DNA of 64,000 nucleotides from assembly GCA_030390025.1 (NCBI GenBank), contig JASTWF010000033.1, forward strand, positions 2,730,001 through 2,794,000, read 5' to 3'. The position numbers were made by a program, and so were the translations under genes. The number at the start of each line of letters is the position of its first letter. Positions within the stretch are counted from its first letter, which is position 1. Source of the stretch: Squalus acanthias (Eukaryota). The notes below the pieces were generated by a model, which ran no database searches, was not told the origin of the DNA, and worked only from the letters and a program-made list of their open reading frames with translations. Positions 4,983-61,049 of this stretch are shown in pieces.

Positions 4983-5051
4983 ATGAAAGACGGGAACATA
5001 TACACAGCGAAACCCAGTAAGAGGTTGAAAACTTTTGGTGCACAATACAAT

Positions 5052-5810
5052 GGCCTAGAAATTCGGGTGGCCGGCTTGCCGCGGGGGTAAGGATCGCGCG
5101 TGCTCTTACCTACTGCGCCTGCCGTTGTGTTTCGGGCCCAAAGGAACTTCGGGTCCTCGGCCTCTCCCTAGTGCCGATGCGCAGAGCTTGCGTGTCTCAG
5201 GGGCGCAGTTCGTGCTATGCGATCCCTGGGATCACGTGGGCCATGGAGAGCCAATGGCAGCAGACCATCTTTCATTCATAGATTTGACAGGAGACCTGTC
5301 AAATCTGTGAATTGAAATCGGCACTTAAAGAACAGCTAAACCTCAAATAAATAAAAAAAAATCACATTAATGAAATAACTATAGTTAAATAAATTAAACA
5401 CTTTAAACAAAAATTTAAATTTTTGAAAAAATTTAAATTCTTTTTAAAAGTTACAAAAATAAACTTACCTTTCTTTAAAGTCTCTAAAAAAGATAAACCT
5501 GTTGAAAAAAAATTAAAATTATATTTAATTAACTACTTACCTTGTTCAAAGGGGGTCTTACGCCTCCTTTTTACTTGTGTAGAATCTACCATACTTACCC
5601 TCGCGTTGAAACCTGAAAAAAATCCTAAGTGTGCTGCATGCGTGCAGCCTCTAGCGCACACGCGGTTCACTTCGGAACCGCCCCCTTCGTCATACCGGAA
5701 GTGCCGGTTTCCCGCGCATGCGCAGTGCATGCAGGAATCCGGCACTTCGGGAACGAATACGGCTGAGTACGCAGCGGGTACTCTCCCGTATTCGGCCGAA
5801 TTTTTGGGCC
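5052..5810. mobile_element. MITE family A copy 1 (PIF/Harbinger-like non-autonomous DNA transposon)
   Basis: TIRs GGCCTAGAAATTC / GAATTTTTGGGCC, AAT duplicated on both sides; homologous to four other copies in the window. Confidence 0.88.
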
Positions 5811-5992
5811 AATGTTTTCTTTAAGATGCATTTATACAGCTTCTTTTACATCTACACATCGCAATACACTTTATACAAAGAAATACCTCTGAAGTCTGGA
5901 GCCTGTTATGTCGCTAATGTGTTAATGAATATAACTGTGTGATGTGTCTGAACAAATGAATGTTACAGGTTCATTTCCAATGCATTACTATG

Positions 5993-8900
5993 GGCCGGTG
6001 TCGGGAGCGGAGAGAGCGATGGTTCAGTGAGCATCTGAACTCACTTTTGCGGGCTTTCTTTGCAGAGGCCGGTGTCGGGAGTGAGGAGAGCGACGGTTCA
6101 GTGATTATTTAAACACACTTTCGCAGGCTTTTTTACAGAGGCTTACCAATCTCACAGACCGGCGGCGGCGTTCCAGAGGCACGTCACGATTCAAAAAGTG
6201 ACGCGGGCAAGAGGAAGCAGCTGATTGGGTGAGTACGGCCAGGTGAGTATTTATACTACTCTATAGTTTGAAAGTTAAGGTTAATATTTATAAAGTTTAG
6301 AAGGTCTTAATTTTGAGGTTTTAGTTGTTAAAGTCTCTGTTGTGTAGCGGGGAGTGCTGATAAACAAGGGCCCTCGACTATTCATTTAATTGTAGTGTAA
6401 TTTGTGTTCTTGATTTGATTAATTTAATTTAAATTAGTTAAAGGGTAATTCATGTCAGCAGAGCTCGGCCCCGTGGCATGCTCCTCCTGCACTATGTGGG
6501 AAATCAGGGACACTTCCTGTGTCCCTGACAACCATGTGTGCGGGAAGTGTATCCAGCTGCAGCTACCGGCAGACCGCATTGCGGCTTTGGAGCTGCGGAT
6601 AGATACATACTGGAGCATTCGCAATGCTGAGAGCTCGTGGATAGAACGTTTAATGAGTTGGTCACGCCGCAGGTAAAGGCTGCACAGTCAGCAAGGGAAT
6701 GGGGGACCGCCAGGCAGAGTAGCAGGCGCAGGCAGGTAGTGCAGGGGTCCCCTGTGGCCATCCCCCTCTCAAACAGATATTCCGCTTTGGATATTGTTGA
6801 GGAGGATGGCTTTTCGGAGGAAGGCAGCAGCAACCAACTGCTGCACAGGACGGGAGGAAAAAGAGTGGGAGAGCTATAGTGATAGGGGATTCTATTGTAA
6901 GGGGAATAGATAGGCGTTTCTGCGGCCGCAAACGAGACTCCAGGATGGTGTGTTGCCTCCCTGGTGCAAGGGTCAAGGATGTCTCGGAGCGACTGCAAGG
7001 TAATCTGGAGGGGGAAGTTGAACAGCCAGTTGCAGTGTTGCATATAGGTACCGACGACATAGGTAAAACACGGGATGAGGTCCTAAAAGCTGAATATAGA
7101 GAGTTAGGAGGTAAATTTAAAGATTGGACCTCAAAGGTAGTAATCTCAGGATTGCTACCAGTGCCACGTACTAGTCAGAGTACAAATAGAAGGATATTTC
7201 AGAATAATACGTGGCTAGAAGAATGGTGCAAAGGGGAGAGATTCAAATTCCTGAGACAATGGAACCGGTTCTGGGGGAGGTGGGACCAGTACAAACTGAA
7301 CGGTTTGCACCTGGGCAGGACCGGGACCGATGTCCTAGGGGGAGTGCTTGCTAGTGCTGTTGGGGAGGGTTTAAACTTAAATGGCAGGGGTTTCGGAACC
7401 TGTGAAGAGAGTCAGAGGAAAAAGAAGCAAGGATAGAAGTAAAAGACAGGAAGGTGAAAAGCAAAAGTGGAAGGCAGAGAAATCAAGTGTGTAAATCAAA
7501 CATGGCCACAGTAAACAATAATTCCACAAGTTCTTAGAGTGTTAAAGAAACAAGCCTGAAGGCATTCGTAATAAGGAGGATGAATTAGCTGTGCAAATAG
7601 ACGTAACTGGATATGATATATTTGGGATTACGGAGACATGGCTCCAGGGTGACCAAGGCTGGGAATTCAACATCCAGGGGTATTCCATATTCTGTAAGGA
7701 CAGGCAAAAAGGAAAATGAGGTGGGGTAGCATTGCTGGTTAAAGAGGAGATTAACGAAATAGTAAGGAACGATATTAGCTGTGATGATGTGGAATCTGTA
7801 TGGGTAGAGCTGAGCAATACGAAGGGGCTGAAAACATTAGTGGGAGTTGTATATAGACCCCCAAACAATAATGCTGAAATTGGGGATGGCATTAAACGGG
7901 AAATTAGAGATGCGTGCATTAAGGGCACAGCAGTTATCATGGGTGACTTTAATCTACATATAGATTGGGCTAACCAAATCAGTAGCAATACTGTGGAAGA
8001 GGAATTCCTAGAGTGTATACGGGATGGTTTCCTGGACGAATATGTCGAGAAACCAACAAGAGATCAGGCCATCTTAGACTGGGTATTATAAAATGAGAGA
8101 GCATTAATTAGCAATCTTGTTGTGCGAGGCCCCTTGGGGAGGAGCGATCATAATATGTTGGAATTCTTCATTAAGATGGAGAGTGAAGTAGTTGTTGACT
8201 CAGTGATTGGGGCTGGATTTTGTCTTAGGGTCGGATTGGGGTCGTGTTACCCACATTTCGTGTTGCCCCCCGCCCCCCACTCCAGATTAATGTGGATGAA
8301 TGATGCAATTTTCACTTAATTGGGTAATTGAGTTCCAGCATGTGGGAACCCATGAACCAATTAGTGGTTTCAGTCTGAAAGTCTCCTCTGAGGTTGTCAT
8401 CATTGCAGGTCAGAGACTGCCTGCCTGGTCTCAGAGATTGCCTTACTTTTGGTGTGAGAGGACCTGGATGCAAAATGAGCAGCAGCTCTAAGGACAGAGA
8501 GAGAGAGAGAGAGAGAGAGAATTTTTCTTGCATCCAGGTCCTCTCAAAGTAAAGGCCAGCCAGTTTCTGAAGATATTCAATGCAGCAGCATCAAAGGCGA
8601 CTTTCAGACTTACTACAACTACTACCTTCATCACATCTCCATTGTAATAGTGGATCTGCAGCTGATAGATAGCCATCCAGTTGTGCTCCCGCCAGGTTTC
8701 ACTGGTGTGTTTCACATCAGGCGTACTTCATGTCGGAAAAGGGTTAAACTAGTTAAACGTTTCAAAATGGCATTACAGAGCCAATTTAGGGATATTTAAG
8801 AGTGTTAATGGCCTCTCGCGCCTCTTGGAGGTGGGACGGAGACGGGAACACCGCGACCCATTTAGTCAAAATTGCGTGGAGGCGTGTTGAAGTCGGGATG

Positions 8901-14182: not shown

Positions 14183-15414
14183 AGTAGAATAGAAAAGTGA
14201 GAACCAGTGGATGTGGTGTATTCGGACTTTCAGAAGGCTTTCGATTAGGTCCCGTATAAGAGATTAGCCGTGCAAAGTTAATGCACATTGGATTGGGGGT
14301 GAGGTACTGGCTTGGATAGATAACTGGTTGGCAGTCAGGAAGCAAAGAGTTGGAATAAACGGGTCTTTTTCCGAGTGGCAGGCAGTGACTAGTGGGGTAC
14401 CGCAGGGAACGGTGCTAGGACCCCAGCTATTCACAATATATATTAATGATCTAGACGAGTATACTAGATGTAATATCTCCAAGTTTACAGACGACACAAA
14501 GCTGGGTGGGCGCGTGTGTTGTGAGGTGGATGCAGAAAAACTCCAGTATGATTTAGACAGGTTGGGTGATTGGGCAGACGCATGGCAAATGCAGTATAAT
14601 GTGGATAAATGCAAGGTTATCCACATCGGTATCAAAAACAGGAAGGCAGATTATTATCTGAACGGCAATAGATTGGGGAAAGGGGAAGTGCAACGGGACC
14701 TGGGTGTCCTTGTGCACCAGTCGCTTAAGGTAAGCATGCAGGTGCAGCAGGTGGTTAAGAAGGCAAATGGTATGTTGGCCTTCATAGCGAGAGGAATCGA
14801 ATAGAGGAGCAAGGATGTTTTCCGGCAGTTGCACAGGGCCTTGGTGAGACCACACCTTGAGTATTGTGTGCAGTTTTGTTCGCCTTATCTGAGGAAGAAT
14901 GTTTTTGCCATGGAGGGAGTGCAGCGAAGATTCACCAGACTGATACCTGGGATGGTAGGAATGACGAATGAAGAGAGATTGGGTCGATTAGGCTTATATT
15001 CGGTAGAGTTCAGAAGAATGAGAGGGGATCTCATTGAAACTTATAAAATTCTAACAGCACTAGACAGACTAGATGGAGGAAGGATGTTCGCAATGGCGTG
15101 GGAGTCCAGAACCAGGGATCACAGTCTAAGGATAAGGGGTAAGCCATTTTGGACTGAGATGAGGAGGAATTTCTTCACCCAGAGTGTGGGGAACCTGTGG
15201 AATTCTCTACCAAAGAAGGCAGTTGAGGCCAATTCATTAAATATATTCAAGAAAGAGATAGATATATTTCTTAAGGCTAAAGGGATCAAGGGATATGGGG
15301 AGAAAGCAGGGCAGAGTATTGAATTTGGATGATCAGCCATGATCTCATTAAATGGCGGAACAGGCTCGAGGGGCCGAATGGCCTACTCCTGCTCCTATCT
15401 TCTATGTTTCTATG
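14183..15414 (+). mobile_element. 5'-truncated CR1 LINE
   Basis: RT ORFs 14328-14804 (FTDD) and 14829-15332; TTCTATGT tail. Confidence 0.92.
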
Positions 15415-16085
15415 TGTGGTGATGGTACTCCCATAGTGCTGTTAGGTAGGGAGTTACAGGATTTTGACCCAGCAACGATGAAGGATCGGCGATATTCATC
15501 TAAGTCAGGATGGTCTGTGAATTGGAGGGGAACTTGGAGGTGGTGGTTTTCCCATGCGCCTGCGGCCCTAGTCCTTCTAGGTGGCAGAGGTAGCGGGATT
15601 GGGAAGTGCTGCCGAAGAAGCCTTGGCGAGTTGTAGATTGTACACACTGCAGCCACGGTAACCCGGTGGTGGAGGGAGTGAATGTTTAAAGTGGTGGATG
15701 GGGTGCCAATCAAGCGGGCTGCTTTGTCTTGGATGGTGTCGGGCTTCTTGAGTGTTGTTGGAGCTGCACTCATCCAGGCAAGTGGAGAGTATTCCATCAC
15801 ACTCCTTACTTGTGCCTTGTTGATAGTGGAAAGGTTTTGGGGAGTCAGGAGATGTGACACTCGCCGCAGAATACCTAGCCTCTGACCTGCTAATGTTGTC
15901 ACAATATTTATGTGGCTGGTCCAGTTATGTTTCTGGTTACTCGTGGCCCCCAGGATGTTGAGAGTGGGGGAATCGGCGATGGTAATGCCATTGAATATCA
16001 AGGGGAGGTGATCAGACTGTCGCTTGTTTTAGATAGTCTTCGCCTGGCACTTCTGTGGCGCGAATGTTACCTGCCACTTTTCAGC
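15415..16085 (-). mobile_element. Non-LTR retrotransposon fragment (RT C-terminus, second LINE family), ending at the ERV LTR
   Basis: WTSHIN...GQRLGILRR...VRSVMEYSPLAW; same family as 30584-31897. Confidence 0.8.
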
Positions 16086-17645
16086 TGCAGCTTCCAAAAG
16101 CTCTTATAATAATTTGTCCGTGACTACACAAACCATTCAGGGTCCAGGTATATTGTGTATCAGTAAAACAGGTTTATTAGCATTAAACATCCAGTACAAA
16201 GAAGTAATACTTAACAAGGAGATAGTCACAGTCGTGTTCGTTTGAGCCTCGGCGTTCCTTCCGAGTGACTGTGGTGCGGTCTCTTTCTTCTCTTGCTGTT
16301 TTCGCTTGACAGCAGATCGCTTCTCTGGTTTCTTGCTGTGTTCTGTCGACTGAAGCTTCTTCAACTCTGGTTCGCGCTGCCTTCAATGTTCAAAATCCGT
16401 ATCTTTATACACCTTTTTTCCTCTTCCTACGTGACTGTAACAGCTATCAAACACCTGGTAAATGTTTTACGACATTGTTCATCCTACTCGGACTCGCTTT
16501 GGGCCCTTTTAACTTTAGATATTCTCTTTCCAAAGACCATTTCCCAAGAGGTTGTCTAAACAAACTGTCCATTTTATAATAGTTATCACTGATAGGTGCT
16601 TCTCTTATTTATCTCCCTCTTCTCCAACTCTTATCTCTTTTCTATCACATTACTGAATACCACCTCCCTGATAGTCCCCATAAACTTAGCATTACATTCC
16701 GTTACTTCAGAAATTGAAAACAGAGCGAGTTTCAGTCAGGTTGGCATAATTTCCCATCCTGCTTTTCTCTCAGCAATTTGACATTTTATACAGTCTTTTA
16801 GGCTTTTAACATACAATTTCAAATATTGGCCCGAAAATTAGAACTAATACGGGAGATTACGCACTGTGTACTCTCGCGTATTAGGTCCCGAAGTTCCGGT
16901 TTCCTGCATGCACTGTGCATGCGCGGGAAACCGGCACTTCGGGTATTGCGAAGGGGGCGCTCCCTAAGTGAACCGCGTGCGCACTACAGGTTGTGCGCAC
17001 GCAGCGCAATTAGTTTTTTTTTCAGGTTTGAACGCGCAGGTAAGTGTTGAAGATTTTACACATAAAGAAAGCAGGCGTAAGACCCCCTTTTAACAAGGTA
17101 AGTAGTTAATGAAGTATTATTTAAAAAAATTTCAACAGGTTTATCTTTTTAGAGACTTTAAAGAAAGGTAAGTTTATTTTTATAACCTTTAAAAAGAAAT
17201 TAAATTTTTTCAAAAATTTTAATTTTTGTTTAAAGTGGTTATTTTATTTAACTATAGTTATTTTATTAATGTGCTGGCTTTTTTTTAAATTTAATTGAGG
17301 TTTAGCTGTTCTTTTGCGGGCTTGTTGTATTCATAGTTTTGACAGCTCTTCCTGTCAAAACTATGAATGAAAGATGGTGTGCTGCCATTGGCTCTAACTG
17401 GCCCACGTGATCCCAGAGGTAGCATCGAACTAACTGCGCCTCTGGGATACGCACACACTGCGCGCCGGCACCAGGGAGAGGCCCAGGAACTGAAGGTCGT
17501 GTGGGCCAAAACTATAAAGGTAGGCGCGGAGTGCGATATCGCGGGGGATCCTTACCCCCGCGGCAACCATCGAAATCCAATTTCTGGGCCATTATAGTTA
17601 GACAAAAATGTTTCACTAAATCAAACAAATACACCATATCCTACG
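16086..17645 (-). repeat. 3' LTR (interrupted by MITE 16828-17590)
   Basis: Aligns end to end with 29733-30479; minus-strand TATAAA at 16404-16409 and AATAAA at 16173-16178. Confidence 0.92.
16828..17590. mobile_element. MITE family A copy 2
   Basis: TIRs GGCCCGAAAATT / AATTTCTGGGCC, ATT TSD; the other LTR has a single ATT at the empty site (~30426). Confidence 0.92.
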
Positions 17646-17658
17646 AATCCCTATCTTG
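17646..17658 (-). other. Putative polypurine tract
   Basis: Minus strand AAGATAGGGATT abutting the 3' LTR; short and imperfect. Confidence 0.5.
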
Positions 17659-17687: not shown

Positions 17688-20600
17688 CTAAACTCTTACA
17701 TATGGATTAGTTTCTTTTCGTTTGTGTAACTCTAAGTTATTTTGGGCTGTGATCATATTTAAAAGTGATTGCGTATTACACATCGGGTGTTTCAGGTAGC
17801 AGGTGTATAGTAGTAAGCATATTAGTACTGTGAGTTGGGCTACGACCAGTACATGTGAAATTATTCTAATCCAAGGAGAAATATCAATATTTGTTCCTTT
17901 ATCCCACCAGTGGCTCTGAATCTCGATGTCTGGAATTTCCTCGGCTATATCTTTACTTCCTTGCACCAACGTATAATAATGGCGTTGAGAGGTGCTCACT
18001 TGACTTATTAGCTCGGTTAATGCTTCAGGTAACTCAGAGATGTCATATCCGAATCTTGTGACATAATCTTCTAGATTTATTTTTAAATCATCAACTACTT
18101 GTAGTACGTTTTGGCCATTTGAGGCTATAACAAGGAGAATTCTTCGTCCTATTACCGTAGTCTTTGTAGGGGTCATTCAGTAGGTCCCTAGGGTTATTGA
18201 ACATTCACGTGTTCCATGACTATAGGAGTTCTTTAAATTGGTAAAATAATACCCCCCTTCTCGTAAGTAGGCTGTTCCAATTCTTACATCTGCGGGGCCT
18301 GTAACTTCCATGGTACAGTTTAACCTTTCTTCATTCCAACCATATCCACAGGTATCCTTTGAATGTTCCCATAAACTGTATGGATAGACAAAGGCATCCT
18401 CATTTGTATTGCATCTCTGGAGGTTTGGTTCAATCCATGTTAGTTTTCCTAATTGTACTAACCATTGTGGTGCCATGAGAAATCGGGTAATAGTATTCCC
18501 TTGTACTACTCCTATATTTCTATCCTAAATAAGGGGTTGGGCCCAGTTCGATTAATTAGACTAGGTATTTGTAGTATTAGTCCCATCAACCTTTGACTCC
18601 CTACCTCGTGGCATTCGGGTTTGACAGGGTGGATCCTAATCAAACTCCTGATCTTACATAGTTCTGCATCATCGTAATAATTGGATAGCCCTGATAAGTG
18701 TTTATTAGTGACCCAAGTGGGGAGACGTCCCTGATTGATGGTCTGAAGGTTTTCCCTAGTTTGTTCAATTAGCCAATTCCCGTACATAATGCATACATCA
18801 TTATGGGCTTCTTGATCAGAAGCATTTCTGTTTTCTCTAATCTGATCATTAATTGTTTTGGCACGATCCTCTATTTCATGTATGATGTCCCGTAGGTGTA
18901 TGGTCATTACCTGATCCTCCCTTAGCTCCTCACTTACTATGTTGTTTTCCCTACTAAGTTTCTCTTTCAACGTTTCCCTTACCGTTTGTAATTACATAAG
19001 AACATAAGAACATAAGAAATATGAGCAGGAGTAGGCCAATCAGCCCCTCGAGCCTGCTCCGCCATTCAATAAGATCATGGCTGATCTGATCCTAACCTCA
19101 AATCTAAAGAACACAAGAAGTAGGAGCAGGACCTGGCCACTCAGCCCCTGGGCACGCTCCGCCACCCACAGGGCCCTGACCGATCCGAACTCAGCCTCAT
19201 GTCCAATTTCCTGCCCGCTCCCCGTAACCCCTAATACCCTTTACCTCTAGGAAACTGTCTATTTCTGTTTTGAATTTATTTAATGATGATGTAGCTTCCA
19301 CAGCTTCCTTGGGTAGCAAATTCCACAGACCTACTAGCCTCTGAGTGAAGAAGTTTCTCCTCATCTCAGTTTTCAAAGAGCAGCCCCTTATTCTAAGATT
19401 ATGCCCCCTAGTTCTAGTTTCACCCATCCTTGGGAACATCCTTACCGCATCCACCCGATCAAGCCCCTTCACAATCTTATATGTTTCAATAAGATCGCCT
19501 CTCATTCTTCTGAAATCCAATGAGTAGAGTCCCAATCTAGTCAACCTCCCCTCATATGTCCACCCCCTCATCCCCGGGATTAACCGAGTGAACCTTCTTT
19601 GTACTGCCTCGAGAGCAAGTATGTCTTTTCTTAAGTATGGACAACAAAACTGTACGCAGTATTCCAGGTGCGGTCTCACCAATATCTTATATAACTGCAG
19701 CAATACCTCCCTGTTTTTATAATCTATCACCCTAGCAATAAAAGCCAACATTCCGTTGGCCTTCTTGATCATCTGCTGCACCTGCAAACTAACTTTTTGA
19801 TTTTCTTGCACTAGGAACCCCAGATCCCTTTGTACTGCAGTACTTTCCAGTTTCTCGCCATTAAGATAATAACTTGCTCTCTGAATTTTCCTGCCAAAGT
19901 GCATAACCCCACATTTTCCAACATTGAATTGCATCTGCCAAATCTCCGCCCACTCACCCAGCCTGTCTATATCCCCTTGTAGGTTTTTTATGTTCTCCTC
20001 ACTTTCTACTTTCCCTCCCATCTTTGTATCAACTGCAAACTTTGATATGTTACACTCGGTCCCCTCCTCCAAATCGTTAATATAGATTGTAAAGAGTTGG
20101 GGACCCAGCACCGACCCCTGCGGAACACCACTGGCTACTGGTTGCCAGTCCAAAAATGAACCATTTATCCCAACTCTCTGCTTCCTTTTAGATAACCAAT
20201 CCTCCACCCATGCCAGAATATTTCCCCCAATCCAGTGATTTTTTATCTTGAGCAATAATCTTTTATGTGGCACCTTGTCGAATGCCTTCTGGAAGTCTAA
20301 ATACACTACGTCCACTGGTTCCCCTTTATCCACCCTGTACGTTATGTCCTCAAAGAACTCAAGCAAATTATGTTTATCTAAATGTTCCGTTACTGTCTCC
20401 TTAATAATAGACTCCAAAATTTTACCCACCACAGATATTAGGCTAACTGGTCTATAATTTCCAGCCTTCTGCCTACTACCCTTTTTAAATAAGGGTGTTA
20501 CATTAGCAGTTTTCCAATCTGCCGGGACCTTTGCTGAGTCCAGGGAATTTTTGAAAATTATTACCAAAGCATCCACAATCCCTACTGCCACTTCCCTCAA

Positions 20601-22776
20601 GACCCTACGATGTAAGCCATCAGGTCCTGTGGATTTATCCGCCTTGAGTCCCATTATTTTACTGAGTACCAATTCCTTCGTGATTTTAATCGTATTTAGC
20701 TCCTCCAAACCTAGAGCCCCCTGTTTGTCCAGTGTTGGGATATTCTTCTTGTCCTCTACCGTAAAGACTGAAACAAAATATTTGTTCAGCATTTTTGCCA
20801 TCTCCATGTTTCCCACCATTAATTTCCCGGTCTCATCCTCTAAGGTACCTACGTTTGCCTTAGCCATCCTTTTTCTTTTTATATAACTATAGAAACTCTT
20901 GCTATCTGTTTTTATATTTTTTGCTAATTTATTTTCATAATCTATCTTCCCTTTCTTAATCAATCATTTAGTTATTTTTTGCTGTCTTTTGAACACTTCC
21001 CAATCTTCTATCCTCCCACTAAGTTTGGCTACCTTATATGTCCTTGTTTTTAGTCGGATACTATCCTTAATTTCTTTACTTAGCCACGGATGGCTGTCAT
21101 TTCTTTTACACCCTTTTTTCCTCAGTGGAATATATTTATTTTGAAAGTTGTAAAATAACTTCTTAAATGAACACCACTGCTCATGTACCGTCTTACCCTT
21201 TAATCTATTTTCCCAGTCCACTTTAATCAATTCCGCTCTCATACCATCATAGTCTCCTTTATTGAAGCTCAGTACGCTTCTTTGAGAACCAACCTTCTCA
21301 CCCTCTAATTGGATATGGAATTCAACCATGTTATGGTCACTCATTCCAAGGGGATCCTTAACTAGGATATTATTAATTAATCCTGACTCATTACACAGGA
21401 CCAGGTCCAAGGTTGCTTGTCCCCTTGTAGGATCAGTTACATACTGCTCAAGAAATCCATCCATAATACACTCAATAAACTCTTCCTCAAGGCTGCCCTA
21501 CCCAATTTGATTTGTCCAGTTAATATGATAGTTAAAATCCCCCATAATTATAGCTGTTTCCCTTATTACATGCCCCAACTATTTCCTGATTAATACTTCT
21601 TCCATTGTTTTTGTAAATCTGCAGAACCATTGAGTTAATTACCGATGTTACTGTGTTGAAACCTGTGAGTCCAGCGTTTATCAATCCTCTTTTCGGTCTA
21701 CTCTTTACCTGGCTGCTCTCTTTGGTGGTTCTAAACTCGTGACGGATGGTCCCTTCTGTTTTCTCTACACTTATAGGTAAGGGCGCCTTTTCCCAGTACG
21801 GATTAAAAACTTGCTGCAGCATTCTCTGAGTTAGTTGTGCTGTTTTGGGCAGCACTTTGGTAGTATTAGTTCTGTTAAATTTAGGATAACTGGTGGGTAT
21901 AATTACAACACCGTTCCCAGGTGCTGGTGTTAGTTGGGGTCATTATTCCTCGGGTAGACCTTCTCGTGATTCTGAATGACTTGCTTTCTCATCGGGTGTA
22001 AGCTTAACACTATAGACATACCCATCGTCCCTTACACATCCAGTTTTTGCATTTTCGAATTCTATTATGCTATTATATTTATTCTCAAATCCCTATAATT
22101 TCCCCAATTTTTAAAGTCATCATAAAGGGTTTCTGTTCTGCCGCGGTGACCTCTATATCGTCTCTGGGAATCTCATATCCTGCTGAGGTAATCTTTACAT
22201 CATATTCGGGAATAGGAGGCCTATCATCATCCTGATTTTTAAAGCCCATGGTAATATTCGACCCAACACAAGAATACTGGCCGGTATGTTTCTTCCACCA
22301 CCGAGGCCAGCATAATTGTATATTTCCCTTACTTTCCGAAGCTACTGGTCCCCGATTTGCGTCTTGTACCTGTTCCCAGATTCCATTATTTTTCTTCAGG
22401 AATTTCCACACATGTGGGCCTTTCCTGTTCCTTATCCCACACCTGATACACACACCATATCCTTCTTTTATTTCCCAATTATACACCTTTTCTTTTAATG
22501 TACACAACCCGTTATGTATGGTGTTGTTATATTATATGTTGTACTATTTCTGATCCAAACAGGAACATCCCCCTAATACGTCTCGGATGATCCGTTATAG
22601 TTCTTTGATTGTTTATGTCCGCCAACAATTCGAGGTTCTATTCCATAGATGGGGAGTAGGGCGCATTCGCCTCCTTCGTCCAGTGTACAGATGTTAATGG
22701 TAAAGTCAAAAGTTTGTGTTTCCTCCGGAGAGCTCACTGCACATCCAATTATCAGTATCAGCCTACAGAGCCACAT
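17688..22776 (-). pseudogene. env: Retroviral env (signal peptide, Ig-like SU, furin site, long TM), split by CR1
   Basis: MWLCRLILIIGCAVSS signal peptide; RPKR|GLINAGLTGFNTVTSVINS at 21699-21630; heptad-like and Cys-rich segments 18177-18970; TM helix IISHVLVVAQLTVLICLLLY; YVRV tail; frameshifts and stops. Confidence 0.85.
18992..21609 (-). mobile_element. Young 5'-truncated CR1 LINE inserted in env
   Basis: 588-aa RT ORF 19197-20963 plus APE ORF 20964-21464; (CATAAGAA)n tail; candidate TSD TTTGTAA at 18985-18991 and 21610-21616. Confidence 0.93.
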
Positions 22777-22809: not shown

Positions 22810-25800
22810 TTAATTCTGAACAGTTTTCATCTGATTGATATGGAACCATTTCAGTTTAGATTCTCCCTTCGGACCATATGGGGTATTCAGTAGATACACA
22901 GCTGGATTTAATTTATCTACTATAGTATGAGGGCCCTTCCATTTTATCTCGAATGAGTGTTTTTTTCGGAGAGAAATGTTGTAACATTACTCGGTCTCCA
23001 GCATCATACTCAAATAGTTGTACCCTCTTATCATAATATCGCTTGATTTGTTCACGCGATTTGCCTATGTTAATGGCCACCAGCTTGCTTACCTTGTCCA
23101 TATGATCTATCGAGGTTTGTAACCATTTTTGGCTACATGGTTGTAGTTTTAATGGTGTGTTATTTCCCAATGTTACATGTCCTGGTATCTGCATTTGTCT
23201 CCCAGTCATAGCCTCATATGGACTTACCCTCGTAGTCCCGTGTGGGGTAGAGCGTATTGCCATTAGACATAAAGGCAACATGTCAGTCCACTGAGTGGGG
23301 TTTTCTATACACAACTTCTGCAACATTGGCCCAAAAATTATTCCCAGTCCGCGAGAGTACGCACTGTGTACTCTCGCGTATTCTGTCTCCAATTGCCGGT
23401 TTTCTGCATGCACTGCGCATGTGCTGAAAACCAGCACTTGGTGAACTCAAAAGGGGGCGGTTCCTAAGTGAACCGCGTGCGCGCTACAGGCTGCGTGCAC
23501 GCAGTGCAATTAGTGCGTTGAACGCTCAGGTAAGCATGGAAGATTTTGCACATAAAGAAAGGAGGCGTAAGACCCTCTTTGAACAAGGTAAGTAGTTAAT
23601 TAAGTATTATTTTAAATTTTTTTCAACAGGTTTATCTTTTTTAGAGACTTTAAAGAAAGGTAAGTTTATTTTTATAACTTTTAAAAAGATTATAAATTTT
23701 TTCAAAAATTTAATTTTTTGTTTAAAGTGGTTAATTTATTTAACTATACTTATTTTATTAATGTGATGGTTCTTTTTTTAAATTTAATTGAGGTTTAGCT
23801 GTTCTTTTGGGGGGTTTTGATTCATAGCTTTGACAGCCCTTGCTGTCAAAACTATGAATGAAAGATGGTGTGCTGCCATTGGCTCAAACTTAATCACGTG
23901 ATCCCACAGCTCGCACGAATTAACTGCGTCTGTGGGATGCGCACACACTGCACAGCTGCAGCCTTGAAACTAAAGTTCGTGTGAGCTCGGAAGGAAAAGG
24001 CAGGCGCGCAGTGAGATATTGCGGGGAAGCCTTACCCCCGCAGGAAGGCTCCGTCTTTAATTTCTGGGCCATTGTCTTTAAAAGTTCGATTTCCCCTCTC
24101 CGCAATCCCTGATGATTGTTGATTGTGCGCAATGTACAATTTATGTTTTATCTGTAACATTTCTTGCAGAGTTATGTAAACTGCCTCCGTAAAGTGTGGA
24201 CCCTGATCGCTATCCACTTGTAATGGCAATCCCCACCTGCAGAACACCTCACTCAGGAGAATTCGAGCTGCGGTGCGCGCTGTGTTATTTCTCGTGGGAA
24301 AAGCCTCGATCCATTTGGTGAAGTGATCGATTATCACAAGTGCGTACTCATAGTTTCCCTTGGATTTTGTTAGTGGACCAATAAAGTCAATCTGTAAGTG
24401 TGTCCATGGTCCCTCAGGAGGGGGTTCTGACCGAAGTAAAGCGCGATTTGAACATGAAGGGGGGTTTGTCTGCCGGTATGGCAGGCAGCGATTAACATAT
24501 TGTTCCACATACTGTTCCATTCCAGCCCACCAGCAAACAGGTAATAACTTTTGTAGTGTAGAGGCCGCTGAGTAATGTCCCGCCGCCGGGTGAGAATGAA
24601 AGAGAGCTAGAATTTCTTCCTTCAACTGAGGATTAATACAAACTACTAGATCTCCCTCTTTATTCCAGATCATTAGTAGGGGAGGGGTTTTATCTACACC
24701 TTGTTGCATTACAGTGGTGTCTGCCCATAGGGTGGGTGCTAGTAGCGGGCATCCCTGTTGATGTCAGGCTATTACCTGTGCATATGCATCCTGTAGGGCC
24801 AAAAGATCAATGGTTTTAGTCTCAGGCTCCGTCCCCACTACGGGTGTCTGAGTACCATTCATCACCCACCAAGGTAGTAACTTTCCATTCTCCGCCACCT
24901 CCTTAGCAAAGCGATCGGCCATTTGATTACATCGGGAATGGGGGGATGAATCTTTCTGATGGGCTGCTACCTTACCCACGTGAAGAGGGGCGACTCGTTC
25001 CTGGAGCACTTTCCATAGCTTACGGAGGAGACCAGAATGTAATAAAGATTTACCATCTGATGAGCAAAACTCATTTGTATTATAGAGGGGAAGAGCCATA
25101 ACTGTGTTACAAACGTAACTGCTGTCGGACCAGATATTTGATTCATCCATAGTCGTGTAATGTACGGCTAGAATTGCAGCAATCAGTTCTGCCTGTTGGG
25201 AGGAGTGGAAGGGAACTTGAAATTCCTCTGACCAATCGTGAGCGTCGATATCAATAAGGGCTCATCCAGTTCTAGGATGGCCGTCTACATAGTATGATGA
25301 CCAGTCAACGTACACATTTCGATCTCCGGGTATGGCGTTAGCCTTTACTGGATTTGGTTCCATATCTAGCACTGGTAATGGACACCGGTGTGGGCTTCCC
25401 TCATAGGCGAACATAAGGGGTAACAGCGTGGTTCGTTTAGGCGTAATGTCCTGGTCCCGCTGTAACAATTCGAGTGTCCATTTACTTATTCGCTGAGAGG
25501 ATACCTTGGTCTCACTTGGTTTTAACAGCAGATTAAGGGGCGTTTGTGGTGAATGCAGAATGACTTTCTGCAGTCTGGTAATGTAGGTGAAATGATTGAC
25601 TGCCCAAAATGTGGCAAATAGATGACGTTCACACGCTGAGATTGCACTTTCCACCCCTCGTAGTAGACGTGATGCATACGCGATAGGGCGTAGTGTCTCG
25701 CTGATTGCCTGTTTCTGATTCAAAACGGCAGTTAGTCTGGTAGGGGTGGAGCCTACTTCAAGGTGAAAGGGCTGACCGTGATCCGGGTAATGAGAGCAGC

Positions 25801-26996
25801 TGCCTGTGTCGTGGCTTGTTTCAAAGCACTAATCGCAGCAGTAGGTTGGACACCCCATACGGGTTGTATCTCCCTTTAAAAGATCATACAAATGTTTAGC
25901 CAAGACTGCAAAATACGGAATAAAATTTCGCTGGTATTCGAGCAAACCTAAAAAGGATCGCAATGCAGTCTTTGAAACTGGTAATGGGAGTCGCTGAATA
26001 GTCTCTATCTTCTTGTGGTCCGGACTAAGGCCAGTCGCTGAAATTTTTACTCCCAGAAAGGTAACCTCATCTTTTGCCAGCTGACCCTTTTTTGGATTTA
26101 TTTTCAGCCCTGCCTTTTGTACTAATCCTATCAGCTCATCTAGGAGTTCTAGGTCTTCTTCCATTGTTTCAGTAGCCAAAAGTAGATCATCAACATCCTG
26201 TAGAAGGGCTGAAGGTTTAGAAAAGTATTTAGCTGCTCGTGCCGTATACTGATGAAAGATCGATGGCGAGATATGAAACCCTTGCGGTCGTCACGTAAAT
26301 GTGTAGCCCTGCCCTTCAAACGTGAAAGCAAATTTGTACTGGTCCTCCTGAGCAACTGGAATACTCCAAAAACCACTCACTCTGTCTAAGATGGAGAAGA
26401 CAGTGGCCTTGGGGGGTATGGATTGTAGTAGTGAAGGGGCTTGACTAACAGTCGGGATTTGACGTGGGGAAGCTTTATTTAAGGCACGGTAATCAATAAT
26501 AAACCTCCAAGATTCATCCGGCATCCTAACTGGCCATGCAGTGGAATTGCTATTTAATTAACATTTGCGCAGTACTCCTTGTTCTTCCAATGAGGCAATG
26601 ACTGTTCGCAAATACGGATTACTTTCTCGGCGAATCTGATATTGTTTACATGCGCGATGGGATGGCCCATTAATTCGCGTCACCCTTTCCATCCTTTCGA
26701 AGTCGTGTTTAGATTTAGCAAAGGCTTCTGCATGTTTGGTCACGAAAGAGTTAACAGCAGGCAGAGAATGTGTCAGAGTGCTATCTGCTCAGGCTTCTTT
26801 ACAGCAAATAACGAGCGAGCGTCTGAGATTTGAACTACATCCCCCGGTTTAGACTCAACCCATAAACAATTCTGATTGTAATCTATAATGGCTGTCATTC
26901 CCCTTAGGGTATATTTCCCAAGTAGCCCATTCTGTATGTCATACACATGTACAATGGATCGGTAATTTTTACGGGGAATTCCTCGAGGGAAATATT
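22810..26996 (-). pseudogene. pol: Retroviral pro-pol (protease remnant, RT, tether, RNase H, integrase)
   Basis: NGLLG..L...AIID protease C-terminus; WRFIIDYRALN; LDRVSGFWSIP; LQDVDDLLL (YVDD position, ~26190); RPIAYASR tether; VYVD..S, QQAEL, WSDSSY, NQMAD RNase H; HSH..AGH, QIDFIGPL, SDQGPHF, SSGIAER integrase; ends WFHINQMK. Confidence 0.92.
23328..24070. mobile_element. MITE family A copy 3 in integrase
   Basis: TIRs GGCCCAAAAATT / AATTTCTGGGCC; ATT TSD; integrase continues on both sides (ERGNRT..|MLQKLC). Confidence 0.92.
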
Positions 26997-27725
26997 GGGC
27001 CAGAAATTCGGGTCTCCACGGATGAGTACGCGCAGGGTACTCACCCGCAGATTCAACGAAAGTGTCGGTTTCGCGCATGCACTGTGCATGCGCTGGAAAC
27101 CGGAACTTCCGTTCCCCTGAAGGAAGGGGTTCAGAGATCGAACGCGTGCGCCGGCGAGGCAGCGCATAGACCTCGAACTTCGTTTTTTTTTCAGGTTTCT
27201 CCATAAGGGTAAGTACGGAGAAGCTGTGCGGGGAAAAAGGAGGCGCAAGGCCTGCTTTTAACAAGGTAAGTGGTGAATTACGTACAATTTAAACATTTTT
27301 TCAACAGGTTTATCTTTTTTACATACTTTAAATAAAGGTAAGTTTATTTTTAGCACCGTTAAAAAGTGTAATAAATTTTTTCAAAAATTAAAATTTTTGT
27401 TTATAGTAGTTAATTTATGTAAATTATAGTTTTTTTAAAAATCTGTTGATTTTTTTTTAATTTATTTTAAGTTTTAGTGAGGTTTTGGGGCCGATCTCTA
27501 TTCATAGATTTGACTGGTCCGATTGGCTCTCCATGGCCCACGTGATCCCAGGGGACGCTTCGAACTAACTGCGCCCCTGGGATACACAAGCACTCCGCGC
27601 CGGCAGCTGGAGGAGGCCCAGGAGCCGAATTCCACGCGTGCCCGAAGCACAACGGCAGCCGCGGTATGCAAGTACGTGCGCGATTCTTGCACCCGCGGAA
27701 AGCCGGAGAGCCGAATTTTTGGCCC
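26997..27725. mobile_element. MITE family A copy 4 at the gag/pro junction
   Basis: TIRs GGGCCAGAAATTCGG / CCGAATTTTTGGCCC; flanks ATT and AAT. Confidence 0.9.
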
Positions 27726-29560
27726 AATACGTGTCTGCATCATACATGACATTCTTTCAAAACGTGAGTCCATGGCGTCCAGCCTGCTATCCACTGGATG
27801 AAGTGAACGGGACGGTCCATATCTCGGGTAATAAAAGTTATTCCTCCCACCTCCCGAGCCTGTTTGTCTAGGACTTAGGCAATCTTTTGCAAAGTGTCCC
27901 ATCTTGCCGCAGTTGTAACACATCAACGATTGCCTACGGGGGTTTGATACTAGAGAAGCCTGGGGTCCCTCAAATATACTTACTGGCGTTTCTGTTGTTG
28001 ATGCCTGGACCTGAATTTTAGCTTAGTCCCATGGAGAAGTAGCTTCTCTTAGAAGGGCTGTCCATTGCATGTTGTGGCTGACCGTGCGCCTAAAGCTGCT
28101 CGCAGTGAGTCTGAATATTCTTCAAATATATTTTCTTAAATGCAGCTTAATCCTTCCCGTTCAAAACATCAACTTTGGAGCGTGCTTGCATCATTTCATA
28201 AATACTGTACAACCGATCTCTGAAAGCAGCAGGGTTCTCATGAGGCCCTTTTTGGGTTTGGTTTAATTTCTGAACCAAATCAATAGTATCCAAGCCTAAG
28301 CTGTTAGTATATATGTGATTAAGACATTCAGTGTGTTCCCCACATTAAAGGCCAAGAAGGGGCGACTAGTCCGTATGTCCAGAGTGAGAGCAGACAGTGC
28401 AACATTCTTCATGTCATTGTCCTCAAAATTAGGATGGTAATTCCAGAATGCAACTATACATTGCCTTAGCTCTATAGGGCATCTTTGTGGATTAACTGGT
28501 CCGAATTGTTGGACACATGCCTGTAGTTCTGCATAGTTTAGGGGCTGGGATCTTTCATAATTACCTGCCCACAGTATCCTTCGAGCTGCCGTTGGTTGTA
28601 CTCCTCCTTGTGGCTGCACCCCCTCAAAAGCTGGTGGCGCGTTAGGAATCATTGGGTACGAGTCAGGACATTAACCGGAGCTCTAACGGGCGCAAGTTCG
28701 TCCGCTGAGGTTTCGATTATATTTTTATTAGCATAGGCTGGAGGTCTTTCAGCCAGGTCGATTGTGTCATATGGGACGGGGACCTTACGGGAAGGAAATA
28801 TCAAGGGAGATTATAGCTCCCCGCTTAACCCCTCGCGTTCTTTATCATAACTTTTGGGTGGGTCTACTCCCGTGACTGCGGCTATTACAGCCCATTGTTT
28901 ACCCAACTGATTTTCTAACTGTTGTATTGTATTCTGACATTGCTTGTGGTCTAACTCCCTGTGGGGGCGCTGAAGAGCCTCTCTCGGGGCCCCTCGTGAA
29001 TAATTTAATTGGCTGATCTAACAGTCATTATCTTTTGTTAAGAAGGCTACTTGGCTTTTACCCTCCTCAAGATTCTGTATTGCAGCGTCTGCATGAACTG
29101 CAGTAATACTCTGCTGTTGTATTATTGCTGTTGCAGCACCGATTAGTCCTTGAAGGACTTCTTGTGTATTGTTTAATTATACAGTTTCTTTTTCCCATTT
29201 TAATTTCTCACCCTGTAGCTTTAGATTCTCTTCTATAAGCTGTTCCAATTTTGACTTTTTACCCTGTAACGTTAGATTCTCTTCTATAAGCCGTAGTTTG
29301 TATTTTTCTAATTTATCCTGCTCATCTTCCATCTCTAGGAATGTTTATTTATCTTGTTTTACACAACACACAGCGGCATAGGCCATTAGCTGCGCTGCCC
29401 AATCCGGTTTCCGTTTCTTTTCCTTAACTTGACTTTCAATGAACGCCACAACGTCCACGAAAAGTACCTTCGCATCCTTTGTTAGACATTCTACTAACAT
29501 CTGTAACTGTGCCTCATCGCACTTCTTCATTAACTTCGCTTAATAGTCTCCAAGAAAATT
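27726..29560 (-). pseudogene. gag: Retroviral gag (N-terminal coiled coil, PPxY, capsid-like region, CCHC knuckle)
   Basis: CYNCGKMGHFAKDC knuckle at ~27880-27920; PPAY at 28733-28744; E/K/L/Q-rich helical region 28900-29400; start codon uncertain. Confidence 0.82.
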
Positions 29561-29711: not shown

Positions 29712-29729
29712 GTCCCTGTCCGGGCGCCA
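29712..29729 (-). promoter_or_regulatory. Primer binding site, tRNA-Lys3
   Basis: TGGCGCCCGGACAGGGAC, 17/18 match to the canonical Lys3 PBS TGGCGCCCGAACAGGGAC, 3 nt from the LTR end. Confidence 0.92.
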
Positions 29730-29732
29730 AAT

Positions 29733-30479
29733 TGTAGCTTCCAAAGGCTGTTATAATAATTTGGCCGTGACTACAAAAATCACTCTGGGTACAGGTATAT
29801 TGTGTAGAAGTTAAATAGGTTTATTAAGCATTAAACATCCAGGACAAGGAAGTAATACTTAACAAGGAGATAGTCACAGTCTTGTTCCATTGAGGAACGC
29901 TGTTCCTTCCGAGCGACTGTGGTGCGGTCTCTTTATTCTCTTGCTGTTTTCTCTTGACTGAAGCTCCTTCAACTCGGATTGTGGGTTCGTGCTGCCTTCA
30001 GTGTTCAATATCCATATGTTTATACACTTTCCCTTTCTTTGCATACGTGACTGCAATCAGCTATCTGACACCTGGCACCTGCTTTTGACCTTGTTGATCC
30101 CACTAGATCTCGCTTTGTGCATAGGAAAGGGCCCATTATCTTTACATGTTCTCTTTCCAAAGACCATTTCCCAAGATGTTATCTAAACATCACTGAGGGG
30201 TGCCTTTAATTTTTCTGTCTGATCTCTTCTCTTCTCTCTTTTCCATCACATTACTGAATACCACGTTCCTGACAGTCTCCATAAACTTAGCATTCCATTC
30301 CATTACTTCAGTCATTGAAAACACAGCGAGTTTCATTCAGTTTGGCATAATTTCCCATCCTGCTTTTCTCTCAGCCATTCGCCATTATATACAGGCTTTT
30401 AGGCTTTTACTATACAATTTCACATATTAGAGTTATACAAAAAATGTTTACTAATCGTACAAATACACCCTATCCTACA
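29733..30479 (-). repeat. 5' LTR
   Basis: TGTAG...CTACA termini; minus-strand TATAAA at 30019-30024 and AATAAA at 29820-29825; adjacent PBS. Confidence 0.93.
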
Positions 30480-30583
30480 ACTCCATTTATAATTGTACCG
30501 TTTATTTCATATTGCCTCTCCATATTTTCATCCCAGATTTATACTTCGAAATAAACTGCATTGAATTTCATCTGTCATTTTTT

Positions 30584-31897
30584 TCAATTTTTATTCATTA
30601 ATGGGATGTGGGCGTCGCTGGCATGGCCAGCATTTATAGCCCATCCATAATTGCCCTTTAGAAGGTGGTGGTGAGCCTTCCTGAATCGCTGCATTCCGTG
30701 TGGTGAAGGTACTCCCACAGTGCTGTTAGGGAGGGAATTCCAGGAATTTGACCCAGCGTTAATGAAGGAACGACGATATACTTCTAAGTAAGGATGATAT
30801 GTGACTTGGAGGGGAACTTGGAGGTGGTGGTGTTCCCGTGCGCTTGCTACCCTTGTCCTTCTAGATGGTAGAGGTCGTGGGTTTGGGAGGTGCTGCCGAA
30901 GAAGCCTTGGCGAGTTGCTGTAGTTGGTACGCACTGCAGCCACGGTACGCCGGTGGTTGAGGGAGTGACTGGTTAAGGTGGTGGATGTGGTGCCAATCAA
31001 GTGTGCTGCTTTGTTCGGGATGATGTCGAACTTCTTGAGTGTTGTTTGAGCTGCACTCATCCAGAAAAGTTTAGAGTATTCCTTCACACACCTGACTTGT
31101 GCCTTATAAATGGTGGAAAAGGCTTTTGCGATTCAGGAGGTGAGACACTCGCCGGAGGATACCCAGCCTTTGACCTGCTCTTGTAGCCACAGTATTTATG
31201 TGGCTGGTCCAGTTAATTTTCTGATCAATGGTGACAGCCAGGACATTGATGGTGGGGGATTTGGCGATGATAATCCCACTGAATGTCAATGTTACGTGGC
31301 TCTTGTTGGAGATAATCATGACCTGGCACTTGTGTGGCGCGAATGTTACTTGCCACTTATCAGGCCAAGCCTGTAAATCGCCCAGGTTTTGCTGCATGCG
31401 GGCATGCACTGCTTCATTATCTAAGCAGTTGCGAATGGAAGTGAACAATGTGAAATCTTCAATGAACATCCCCACTTCTGACATTATGATGGAGGGAAGG
31501 TCATTGATGAAGCAGCTGAAGATGGTTCGGCATAGGACTCAGCTCTGCAGTGATGTCCTGGGGATTAGATTATTGAACTTCTACAACCATATCCTTCTTC
31601 CTTTGTACTCGGTATGACTCCAGCCAGTGTAGAGTTTCCCTCCTGATTCCCATTGACTTCAGTTTTACTCGGGCTCCTTGATGCCAGACTGGGTCAAATG
31701 TTACCTTGATGTCAACAGCAGTCACTCACCTCACCTCTGGAATTCAGCTCCTTTGGCCTTGTTTGGACCGAGGCTGTAAAGAGTTCTGGAGCCGAGTGGT
31801 CGCGGCGGAACCTGAACTGAGCGCCAGTGAGCAGGTTATTGGTGAGTAAGTGCCGATTGATAGCACTGTTGATGACAGCTTTCATCACTTTGCTCAT
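30584..31897 (-). mobile_element. Non-LTR retrotransposon fragment (same family as 15415-16085)
   Basis: RT ORFs 31104-31484, 31712-31897 and 30584-31087; T-rich tail at ~30577-30600. Confidence 0.82.
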
Positions 31898-40531: not shown

Positions 40532-40537
40532 TTAAAC

Positions 40538-41203
40538 TGACAGGACCAGTCACAGAGGCTTTGCAAAGAGACAGCACCAGTCACATAGGCTTTTTAAAAA
40601 TGCTCGACCAGACACACAGGCTTTCTAAAGAGACAGAACCAGTCACACAGGCTTTGTAAAGAGACAGGCTCATTCACGTAGCCTTTTTAAAGAGACAGGA
40701 CCAGTCACATAGGCTTTTTCAAGAGACAGGACCAGACACACAGGCTTTTTAAAGGTACAGGACCAGTCACATACGCTTTATCAATGGACAGGTCCAGCCA
40801 GACAGGCTTTATAAAGAGACAGGACCAGCCAGACAGGCTTTATAAAGAGACAGGACCAGCCAGACAGGCTTTATAAAGAGACAGGACCAGCCAGACAGGC
40901 TTTATAAAGAGACAGGACCAGCCAGACAGGCTTTATAAAGAGACAGGACCAGTCACACAGGTTGTCTAAAGAGACAGGACCAGCCAGACAGGCATTATAA
41001 AGATACAGGGACAGGCACACAGTGTTTGTAATAGACAGGGCCAGTTACACAGGCTTTTTAAAGAGACAGGACCAGTCACACAGGCTTTATAGAGAGACAG
41101 GACCAGACAGATAGGCTTTTTAAAGTGACAGGACCATTCACATAGGCTTTTTAAAGAGACAGAACTAGTCACACTGGCTTTTTAAAGAGAGCAGGCCAGA
41201 CAC
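40538..41203. repeat. 30-31-bp satellite, block 1
   Basis: Unit GACAGGACCAGTCACACAGGCTTTNTAAAGA. Confidence 0.95.
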
Positions 41204-41206
41204 TTA

Positions 41207-42457
41207 GATTTCTATGTAAGGACTCTATTCCATTCTCCCAGTTTCTCTGTCTCCGCCGCATATGCTCTGACGATGCCACCTTCCATACCAGTGCTTCCGA
41301 CATGTCTTCCTTTTTCCTCAAACGAGGATTCCCCACTACTGTGGTTGACACGGCCCTCGACCGTGTCCATTCTATCTCCCGCACTTCTGCCCTAACCCCT
41401 GCCCCTCCCTCCCGGAACCACGATAAAGTTCCCCTTGTCCTCACCTTTCACCCCACCAGCCTTCACATTCAACGGATCATCCTCCGCCATTTCCGAAACT
41501 TCTAGAGATCCCAACACCAAACGCATCTTCCCCTCACCTCCCCTTTCAGCATTCCGCAGGGACCGCTCCCTCCGCGACACCCTAGTCCACTCCTCTATCA
41601 CCCCCAGCACCCCTTCCCCTTCGCCCGGCACCTTCACGTGCAAGCGCAGGCTATGCAACACATGCCCTTATACCTCCCCTCTTCCCACTGTCCAGGGCCC
41701 CAAACACCACTTCCAGGTGAAACAGCGATTTACTTGTACTTCCTGCAATTTAGTATACTGTATTCGCTGCTCACGATGTGGTCTCCTCTACACTGGGGAG
41801 ACCAAACGCAGATTGGGTGACAGCTTTGCGGAACACCTCCATTCAGTCCGTGAGGGGGACCCCGAGCTCCCGGTGGCCTGTCAATTTAATTCTCCGCTCC
41901 ACTCCCACTCTGACCTCACCGACCTCGGCCTCTTGCATTGTTCCACAGAAGTTCAGCGTAAGCTCGAGGAACAGCACCTCCTCTTTCGTATAGGCTCCCT
42001 AAAGCCATCTGGACTCAACATCGAGTTCAACAATTTCAGATCATAACCTCTGTCCCTATCACATTTATATGTTTTTATTTTATTTTTTCATCCACCCTTT
42101 TGTTTGCCATTTCTTTCCCTCCCAGAAGCTGCCAGCTGTCCTTCATTCTGCCAGCGCATCTCACACTTATTCTAGCCTCAACCTCTCACATTAACACCTC
42201 CTCTTGCCTTGATTATCTCTTAATGTCACTCAATGTCTCTTAATCTCTCCTGCTTTATATCCCAGCACTGACCTTCCCTTTTGTTCTTTCTTCCCCTCCC
42301 CCTTTTCCCAGCTTTATCCTTGCTTTCAATCTATTTCATTTCCTGCTTTTTTCCAGTACTGACGAAAGGACTTCGACCTGAAACGTTAACTCTGTTTCTC
42401 TCTCCACGGTTGCGGCCTGGCCTGCTGAATTTTTCCAGCGTTTTCTGTTGTTATTTA
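41207..42457 (+). mobile_element. Penelope-like element 3' part with GIY-YIG endonuclease
   Basis: TCKRRLCNTC...VYCIRCSRCGLLYTGETKRRL..F.EH in ORF 41435-42046. Confidence 0.92.
42355..42391 (+). ncRNA. Minimal type I hammerhead ribozyme motif
   Basis: AGTA-CTGACGA-AAGGACTTCGACCT-GAAA-CGTT-AACT; both core boxes intact. Confidence 0.68.
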
Positions 42458-44130: not shown

Positions 44131-44141
44131 GGTAGCACCAA

Positions 44142-49500: not shown

Positions 49501-50550
49501 CTAATAGACAGGACCAGACACACAGGCTTTCTATTAGACACGACCAGACACACAGGCCTTCTAATAGACAGGACCATTCACACAAGCTTTCTAATTGACA
49601 GGACTAGTCACACAGGCTTTCAAATAGACAGGACCAGATACATATACTTTATAATAGACAGGACCAGTCACACAGGCGTTCTAATAGACAGGACCAGACA
49701 CAAAGGCTTTCTAATAGACATGACAAGTCACACAGGAACAGACACATAGGCTTTCTAATAGACAGGACCAGACACACAGTCCTTCTAATAGACAGGACCA
49801 TTCACACAAGCTTTCTAATTGACAGGACCAGTCACACAGACTTTCTAATGGACAGGATCAGTCATATCGGCTTTATAAAAGACAGGAACATTCACACAGG
49901 CTTTATAAAAAGACAGGACTTGTCTCACAGGCTTTATAAAGAGACAGGACCATTCACACAGGCTTTTTAAAGAGACAGGAACGGTCACACAGGCTATTTA
50001 AAGAGACATGACCAGTTACTCAGGCTTTTAAAGAGACAGGACTAGTCACACAGGCATTTAAAGCGACAGGACCAATCACACAGGCTTTATAAAGAGGCAG
50101 GACCAGTCACACAGGCTTTCAAAAGAGACAGGACCAGGCACACCGGCTTTCTAAAGAGACAGGACCAGTCACACAGGCTTTATAAAGAGGCAGGACCAGT
50201 CACACAGGCTTTCAAAAGAGACAGGACCAGACACACAGGCTTTTGAAAGAGACAAGACCAGTCAACACAGTATTTTTAAAGAGACAGGTTCAATCACACA
50301 GGCTTTTTAAAGAGACAAGACAAGACACATAGGCTTTATAAAGAGACAGGACCAGTCACACAGTCTTTTTTAAGAGACAGGACCAGTCACTCAGGCTTTC
50401 TAAAGAGACAGGAGCAGTTACTGAGGCTTTCTAATAGACAGGAGCAGTCACACAGGCTTCCTAAAGAGACAGGAGCAGTCACGCAGGCGTTTTTTTTAAA
50501 GAGACAGGAAATGTCACACCGGCTTTTTAAGAAGCGAAAACCAGTCACCA
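46587..50550. repeat. 30-31-bp satellite, block 3 (largest)
   Basis: Same unit, with higher-order duplications. Confidence 0.95.
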
Positions 50551-60405: not shown

Positions 60406-60407
60406 AC

Positions 60408-61046: not shown

Positions 61047-61049
61047 TAT

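Follow-up and report, generated by a model that had tools for sequence, protein, structure and literature searches.

A probable immunoglobulin-superfamily domain at the N-terminus of an F-like envelope protein in endogenous retroviruses of Squalus acanthias

The envelope gene and its N-terminal segment

The 64,000-nucleotide stretch of the Squalus acanthias genome analyzed here (contig JASTWF010000033.1, positions 2,730,001 to 2,794,000; referred to as the window) contains a provirus on the minus strand, whose envelope (Env) protein carries ahead of its fusion core a segment that is very probably a diverged domain of the immunoglobulin superfamily (IgSF) with the Ig fold. The copy in the window is dead, being disrupted by three frameshifts and the insertion of a long interspersed nuclear element (LINE), and in tblastn sister Env proteins map to it in five pieces, with breaks at the points given in the following list of env features.

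22504-22776, minus strand: start of Env with Met at 22776 and a hydrophobic signal peptide (recognized by eye), followed by about 75 residues up to the Ig segment; the frame differs from that of the Ig piece, with a break near 22504-22510
22250-22500, minus strand: IgSF domain (I/V-set-like) within the N-terminal arm of Env, with the canonical Cys at 22441 and 22270, Trp at 22408 and extra Cys at 22450 and 22312
21940-22249, minus strand: variable linker of about 90 amino acids from the Ig domain to the fusion core, with a break near 22089-22109
21628-21939, minus strand: F2-like part of the core, beginning with P-x-P-G-N-G (21927), with a furin-type RPKR site (21699-21688) and the start of the fusion peptide; resembles by eye the Env starts in the lokiretrovirus (loki) sequence excerpts
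18992-21627, minus strand: LINE retroposon in env, directly after the fusion peptide, with a reverse transcriptase (RT) open reading frame (ORF) at 19197-20963
17691-18991, minus strand: F1-like remainder with heptad region, Cys-rich domains, a transmembrane helix at about 17796-17864 (by eye) and a short tail; break near 18518-18536

A first-pass annotation of the window had pointed out an Ig-type pattern in an ORF at 22085-22507. The motif is present as claimed, but the 140 residues of this ORF were counted from a TTG, which is no real start; the corresponding stop-free frame spans 22088-22531 on the minus strand and comprises 148 amino acids. The claimed spacing was confirmed, with 57 residues between the strand-B and strand-F Cys and the strand-C Trp 11 residues past the former; the strand-B EGYG begins at 22465, and the segment lies, as had been stated, between the Env start and the cleavage site. 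When the residues of the ORF were shuffled 100,000 times, a strict form of the motif appeared in 1 shuffle and a loose form in 64, and neither was found when the codons of the 12.6-kb provirus were shuffled 300 times, but these odds are generous because the patterns were composed after the sequence had been seen. Taken alone, the window sequence scored weakly, with Pfam Ig_3 at E 0.013 and 16.4 bits, where the cut-off is 30, and with an MLCK Ig domain as the only PDB match (E 0.14).

Relatives of the window ORF are numerous, and all 150 that were scored (150 of 4718 candidates in the 3.7-Gb genome) gave a match. We grouped the Envs from this genome into eight lineages (A-H), whose Ig modules share 16-42% identity with the lineage of the window copy. 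Among 29 fetched sister loci of family A, signal peptide and Ig segment were encoded in a single stop-free frame in 11, the frame spanned signal peptide, Ig segment and core start in seven, and it extended past the cleavage site in three; L004, which was outside this count, is likewise open through the cleavage site, and loci of lineage C such as L073 and L079 have the same single-frame layout. The check on sister proviruses proposed in the first-pass annotation thus places the segment in frame with both signal peptide and core. The order in the sister copies is signal peptide, about 75 amino acids, Ig domain, linker, F2-like core, R-x-K/R-R and F1-like core, with approximately 285 residues preceding the core start (285 in L044).

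Ratios of nonsynonymous to synonymous substitutions (dN/dS), calculated for four pairs against L045, were 0.11-0.29 for the Ig segment, 0.15-0.29 for F2 and 0.33-0.47 for the linker, and the three pairs covering F1 gave 0.14-0.16. By these estimates the Ig segment is under purifying selection, and we regard its membership in Env as practically certain.

Evidence for the Ig fold and the nature of the fusion core

Since the single sequence is weak, the Ig assignment owes its significance to the family profiles. A module profile of all eight lineages (A4) matched 348 PDB sequences at E≤2, and among the matches listed 60 of 60 were IgSF chains or antibody or T-cell receptor domains. The best listed match reached 3.1e-10 summed over three domains, while single-domain matches reached 3.7e-4 (MLCK Ig) and 6.2e-4 (CD8-alpha); at the top of those listed were DIP/IgLON, contactin, MDGA, JAM and CD8. 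Against 24 host Ig domains, hhalign gave 91.6% for all lineages and 89% for lineage A alone, compared with at most 1.4% for shuffled and 0.3% for reversed controls, and lineages D-H matched A-C with 93% (shuffles at most 0.5%). Pfam Ig_3 was detected in 12 of 22 module members (best 8.4e-6), although the curated Ig cut-off of 30 bits was missed by the window sequence (16.4-17.6 bits) and by lineage C (20.3 bits). In the ESM Atlas, V-set ranked first for the module with 0.93. A single AlphaFold model of low confidence (pLDDT 54) was all-beta with the order A'-B-C-C'-D-E-helix-F, and the matches listed for it by Foldseek/VIA were Ig-fold proteins or antibody complexes. Profile searches and structure comparison, which had been suggested as a check of the fold, therefore both returned Ig-type matches among those listed, the latter with the reservation that applies to the model.

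The Cys-Trp-Cys framework of V/I-set domains is kept in lineages A, B and C and partly lost in D-H. The strand-F motif takes the form H/Q-x-G-x-Y-x-C with an invariant Gly (15/15), and the A'-B E-G is conserved in at least 90% of the aligned module sequences. On this conserved framework, the middle of the module varies freely in length and sequence between lineages. Both extra Cys occur in lineages A, B and C, and neither is found at those positions in D-H; this joint presence and absence is as expected for the link between strands B and E that had been proposed, which we treat as a putative disulfide.

The fusion core is weakly but consistently paramyxovirus-F-like at the sequence level, in line with the earlier reading. 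With a 13-row core profile, the top six PDB matches were Fusion glycoprotein F0 chains, with weak E values of 0.0013-0.043 and the Cys-rich stretch aligned, followed by coiled coils. PF00523 matched in one of the 13 core members (E 0.005), and in the Atlas recognition was low, with 0.90-0.92 for Baculo_F and Fusion_gly. The sequences can be read as having a signal peptide, a furin site, a fusion peptide, a heptad region and a transmembrane anchor, and core start, cleavage site and later motifs resemble by eye the loki Envs as excerpted from the supplement of PMC7947760. In lineages D-G (L112, L090, L120, L126) the fusion peptide is rich in Gly, Trp and Ala, unlike in A-C, while the remaining core aligns. 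Domain II of paramyxovirus and pneumovirus F adopts an Ig fold as well, but belongs to the core according to the relevant passages of PMC11468914, whereas the module described here showed no likeness to its own fusion core (hhalign 0.2%); it did not arise by copying of the Ig-fold domain within that core.

Possible origin and function of the N-terminal domain

The Ig domain is likely to be of cellular origin and to go back to a single ancient capture from an I-set-type gene of the adhesion type, which would have taken place before the lineages split. A profile of lineages A and B, searched against 1.84 billion representatives, gave 10 matches, nine of which were multi-Ig proteins, and did not reveal a host donor gene; the top IgSF matches listed above are too weak to name one. 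The empty donor search is also what one would expect if the domain had come from another virus or retroelement that already possessed an Ig-like receptor-binding domain (RBD), an alternative that concerns only the origin and that we consider unlikely, albeit worth weighing, as RBD exchange is described as frequent among retroviruses in the sections consulted of a recent preprint (Hotzel, 10.1101/2024.03.17.585361). However, no viral relative was found at E≤0.001 in BFVD, the 1.84 billion representatives or IMG/VR, and the module retains the canonical B-F Cys pair and the E-F G-x-Y-x-C, whereas the RBD-C of gamma-type Env, as characterized in those sections, lacks both. A far-reaching and improbable extension of the cellular origin would be that a whole basal radiation of retroviruses with F-type Env goes back to an ancestor that had acquired an IgSF adhesion domain, and that RBD-C descends from the same capture. 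Lineages D-H, with canonical Cys or Trp lost, would then be intermediates, and the entry machinery of orthoretroviruses would be connected to the F-type one by a single head of host origin.

Viruses with F-type fusogens usually rely for attachment on a distinct protein or on an inserted RBD; in paramyxoviruses, this task falls to a separate H, HN or G protein. For the Env described here, we propose that furin cleavage would yield a surface (SU) and a transmembrane (TM) subunit and that the Ig domain may form the membrane-distal head of SU on an F-type (class I) Env, so that the trimer would display three heads. These heads could bind a host surface molecule and thereby supply attachment in the same chain as the fusogen, after which the F core would fuse the membranes. 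Judging from sequence comparisons, we assign a probability of about 0.55 to this attachment or receptor-binding role. N-terminal IgV domains serve as RBD in gamma-type Env (10.1101/2024.03.17.585361, in the part covering these proteins).

A structural role, in which the Ig domain caps and stabilizes the prefusion trimer or aids folding while neighboring variable segments bind the receptor, appears clearly less probable. It would agree with the constraint on the Ig segment, which equals that on the F2 core while the linker changes fastest, and with the extra disulfide-type Cys in lineages A-C, but not with the variability of the middle of the domain on a fixed framework, which resembles the variable regions of RBD-C as outlined in the preprint. 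Slightly less plausible still is that the domain is directed at the immune system, as a mimic, a decoy or a shield that would engage an inhibitory receptor or cover the core, and that core or linker attaches. Loki Envs with the same core type function without an arm, as far as the excerpts of PMC7947760 extend, and hence an F-type Env as such can do without one; in addition, CD8-alpha, CRTAM and JAM-A were among the profile matches listed, and viral Ig-fold immune modulators exist (as BFVD rows, all non-significant). On the other hand, if the domain mimicked one host protein, it would be expected to remain close to that protein, and none is recognizable, and the module was kept across eight lineages although canonical Cys or Trp were lost in D-H. 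Both a separate accessory ORF, which the first-pass annotation had left possible, and a Cys/Trp pattern arisen by chance are rejected as highly improbable: two frameshifts bracket the segment in the window copy and single-sequence scores are weak, but the sister copies join signal peptide, module and core in one constrained frame, the first Met of the fragment occurs only at residue 95, and the profile statistics support IgSF.

The preprint shows that Ig heads on Env and their capture from hosts are already known, and the earlier statement that Ig domains are not typical of retroviral SU was thus overstated. According to the portions consulted, RBDs of a modified IgV type occur widely among gamma-type Envs, and the mammalian alpharetrovirus-like Env-Dbi/Env-Per has a canonical IgV RBD derived from SIRP (10.1101/2024.03.17.585361). 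Env-Dbi/Env-Per share with our module a canonical Ig domain with B-F disulfide at the SU N-terminus, a proposed RBD function and an extra non-canonical disulfide, but they have a gamma-type fusogen and an alignable mammalian donor, whereas here an F-type core is combined with an unrecognizable donor and low identity between lineages. RBD-C of gamma-type Env (MLV, FeLV, Env-Pb1, ZFERV), compared by description only, has a similar N-terminal Ig-like framework with variable loops, but no B-F disulfide, and resides on a gamma-type TM. Foamy virus Env likewise combines an F-type core with its own RBD in SU, which is however inserted inside the core via two linkers (PMC11468914, relevant passages). 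An F-type Env with an Ig head was not found described in the literature searched, which included passages of PMC7947760, PMC9040795, 10.1101/2023.10.26.564294, PMC13709493, PMC12583693, PMC3758190, PMC12193657, PMC4977317 and PMC4131045. What is new here is the depth of this layout across eight divergent lineages.

If the proposal is correct, the combination of an IgSF head with an F-type retroviral Env would represent a third solution for attachment and a second capture of an Ig domain into Env, far older than the mammalian SIRP case. The eight lineages may then provide a natural series, from near-canonical to eroded, for the conversion of a host Ig domain into a viral RBD, which bears on the origin of the gammaretroviral Ig-like RBD.

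Affiliation and surroundings of the provirus

The remaining parts of the provirus are as follows.

22913-27290, minus strand: broken pol with protease remnant (by eye), RT, tether (RNase H-like), RNase H and integrase
27498-29539, minus strand: broken gag with coiled-coil-rich N-terminal pieces (by eye) and a CCHC zinc knuckle
29712-29729, minus strand: primer-binding site directly after the 5' long terminal repeat (LTR), presumably of the tRNA-Lys type
29733-30484, minus strand: 5' LTR of about 750 bp
16086-17650, minus strand: 3' LTR, split by a 780-bp repeat at 16821-17600

The insertion is old, since the LTRs are only 77% identical with gaps counted. The nearest named RTs are those of frog and coelacanth elements (52-58% identity), the best PDB score was obtained for foamy RT, and P0034 is a match to the published RT of snakehead retrovirus (SnRV). 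The motifs P-Q-G-F and L-L-Q-Y-V-D-D and their spacing resemble those of SnRV and other retroviruses, but the SnRV RT is only 40% identical to the RT found here. Two loki RTs compared, taken from excerpted sequences, differ in carrying P-F-G-Y and I-Y-V-D-D instead. In a quick RT tree with open forks and a long SnRV branch, built without loki or foamy rows, SnRV did not group with this RT. Judged by its sequence, the RT appears nearer to elements of the snakehead-retrovirus type than to those of loki, and an F-type Env would here accompany an RT of non-loki appearance.

A pol with dual RNase H, env and LTRs are present as in lokiretroviruses, and the tether and integrase are similar by eye to those in the loki excerpts. 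The loki Envs of PMC7947760, judged from the first 330 characters of each sequence, share signal peptide, a P-G-P-x-x-G core start, R-x-K-R and an F-like F1. They differ in their short SU: the N-terminus is visible in 22 of the 23 Envs listed, and in 22 of 22 there is no arm and the core begins directly behind the signal peptide, in contrast to the 285 residues ahead of the core start in L044. The consulted part of that study lists no lokiretroviruses for three Chondrichthyes genomes (Wang and Han, PMC7947760). An abundant group of elements in the genome (L080, L081, L084, L087, L089) has an RT 61-63% identical to that of this family and no convincing env match after the integrase; L084 has a gag-like ORF at a distance of no more than about 1.4 kb downstream, which suggests env-less tandem elements. 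In lineage C, the integrase frame of L047:5409-7172 (minus strand) is about 190 residues longer than usual, the extension forming a basic tail of low complexity. The coiled-coil-rich 5' gag of the window copy contains a 51-nt tandem duplication (29192-29293) that recalls by eye the loki 'smc' region.

The non-coding repeat of about 780 bp is present in five copies that are 69-83% alike (16821-17600, 23322-24073, 27060-27701, 5046-5817 and 53745-54358), three of which lie inside the provirus, in the 3' LTR, the integrase and the gag-pol junction; similar insertions also split the integrase in the sister loci L008 and L024. Pieces of another repeat, of about 670 bp, flank the provirus, oriented alike and at 82% identity (15414-16084 and 30698-31363). 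Arrays of a 31-bp satellite with up to 128 copies each, broken by LINE pieces, occupy 40532-50530, 57061-57570 and 60406-61048. The ORF at 6801-7436 (plus strand) is GDSL/SGNH esterase-like (Pfam E 3.6e-7) and is, we assume, a LINE ORF1. ORFs for Harbinger-like DDE transposases were recognized by eye in or beside sister proviruses (L044:7751-8868, L049:6271-7500).
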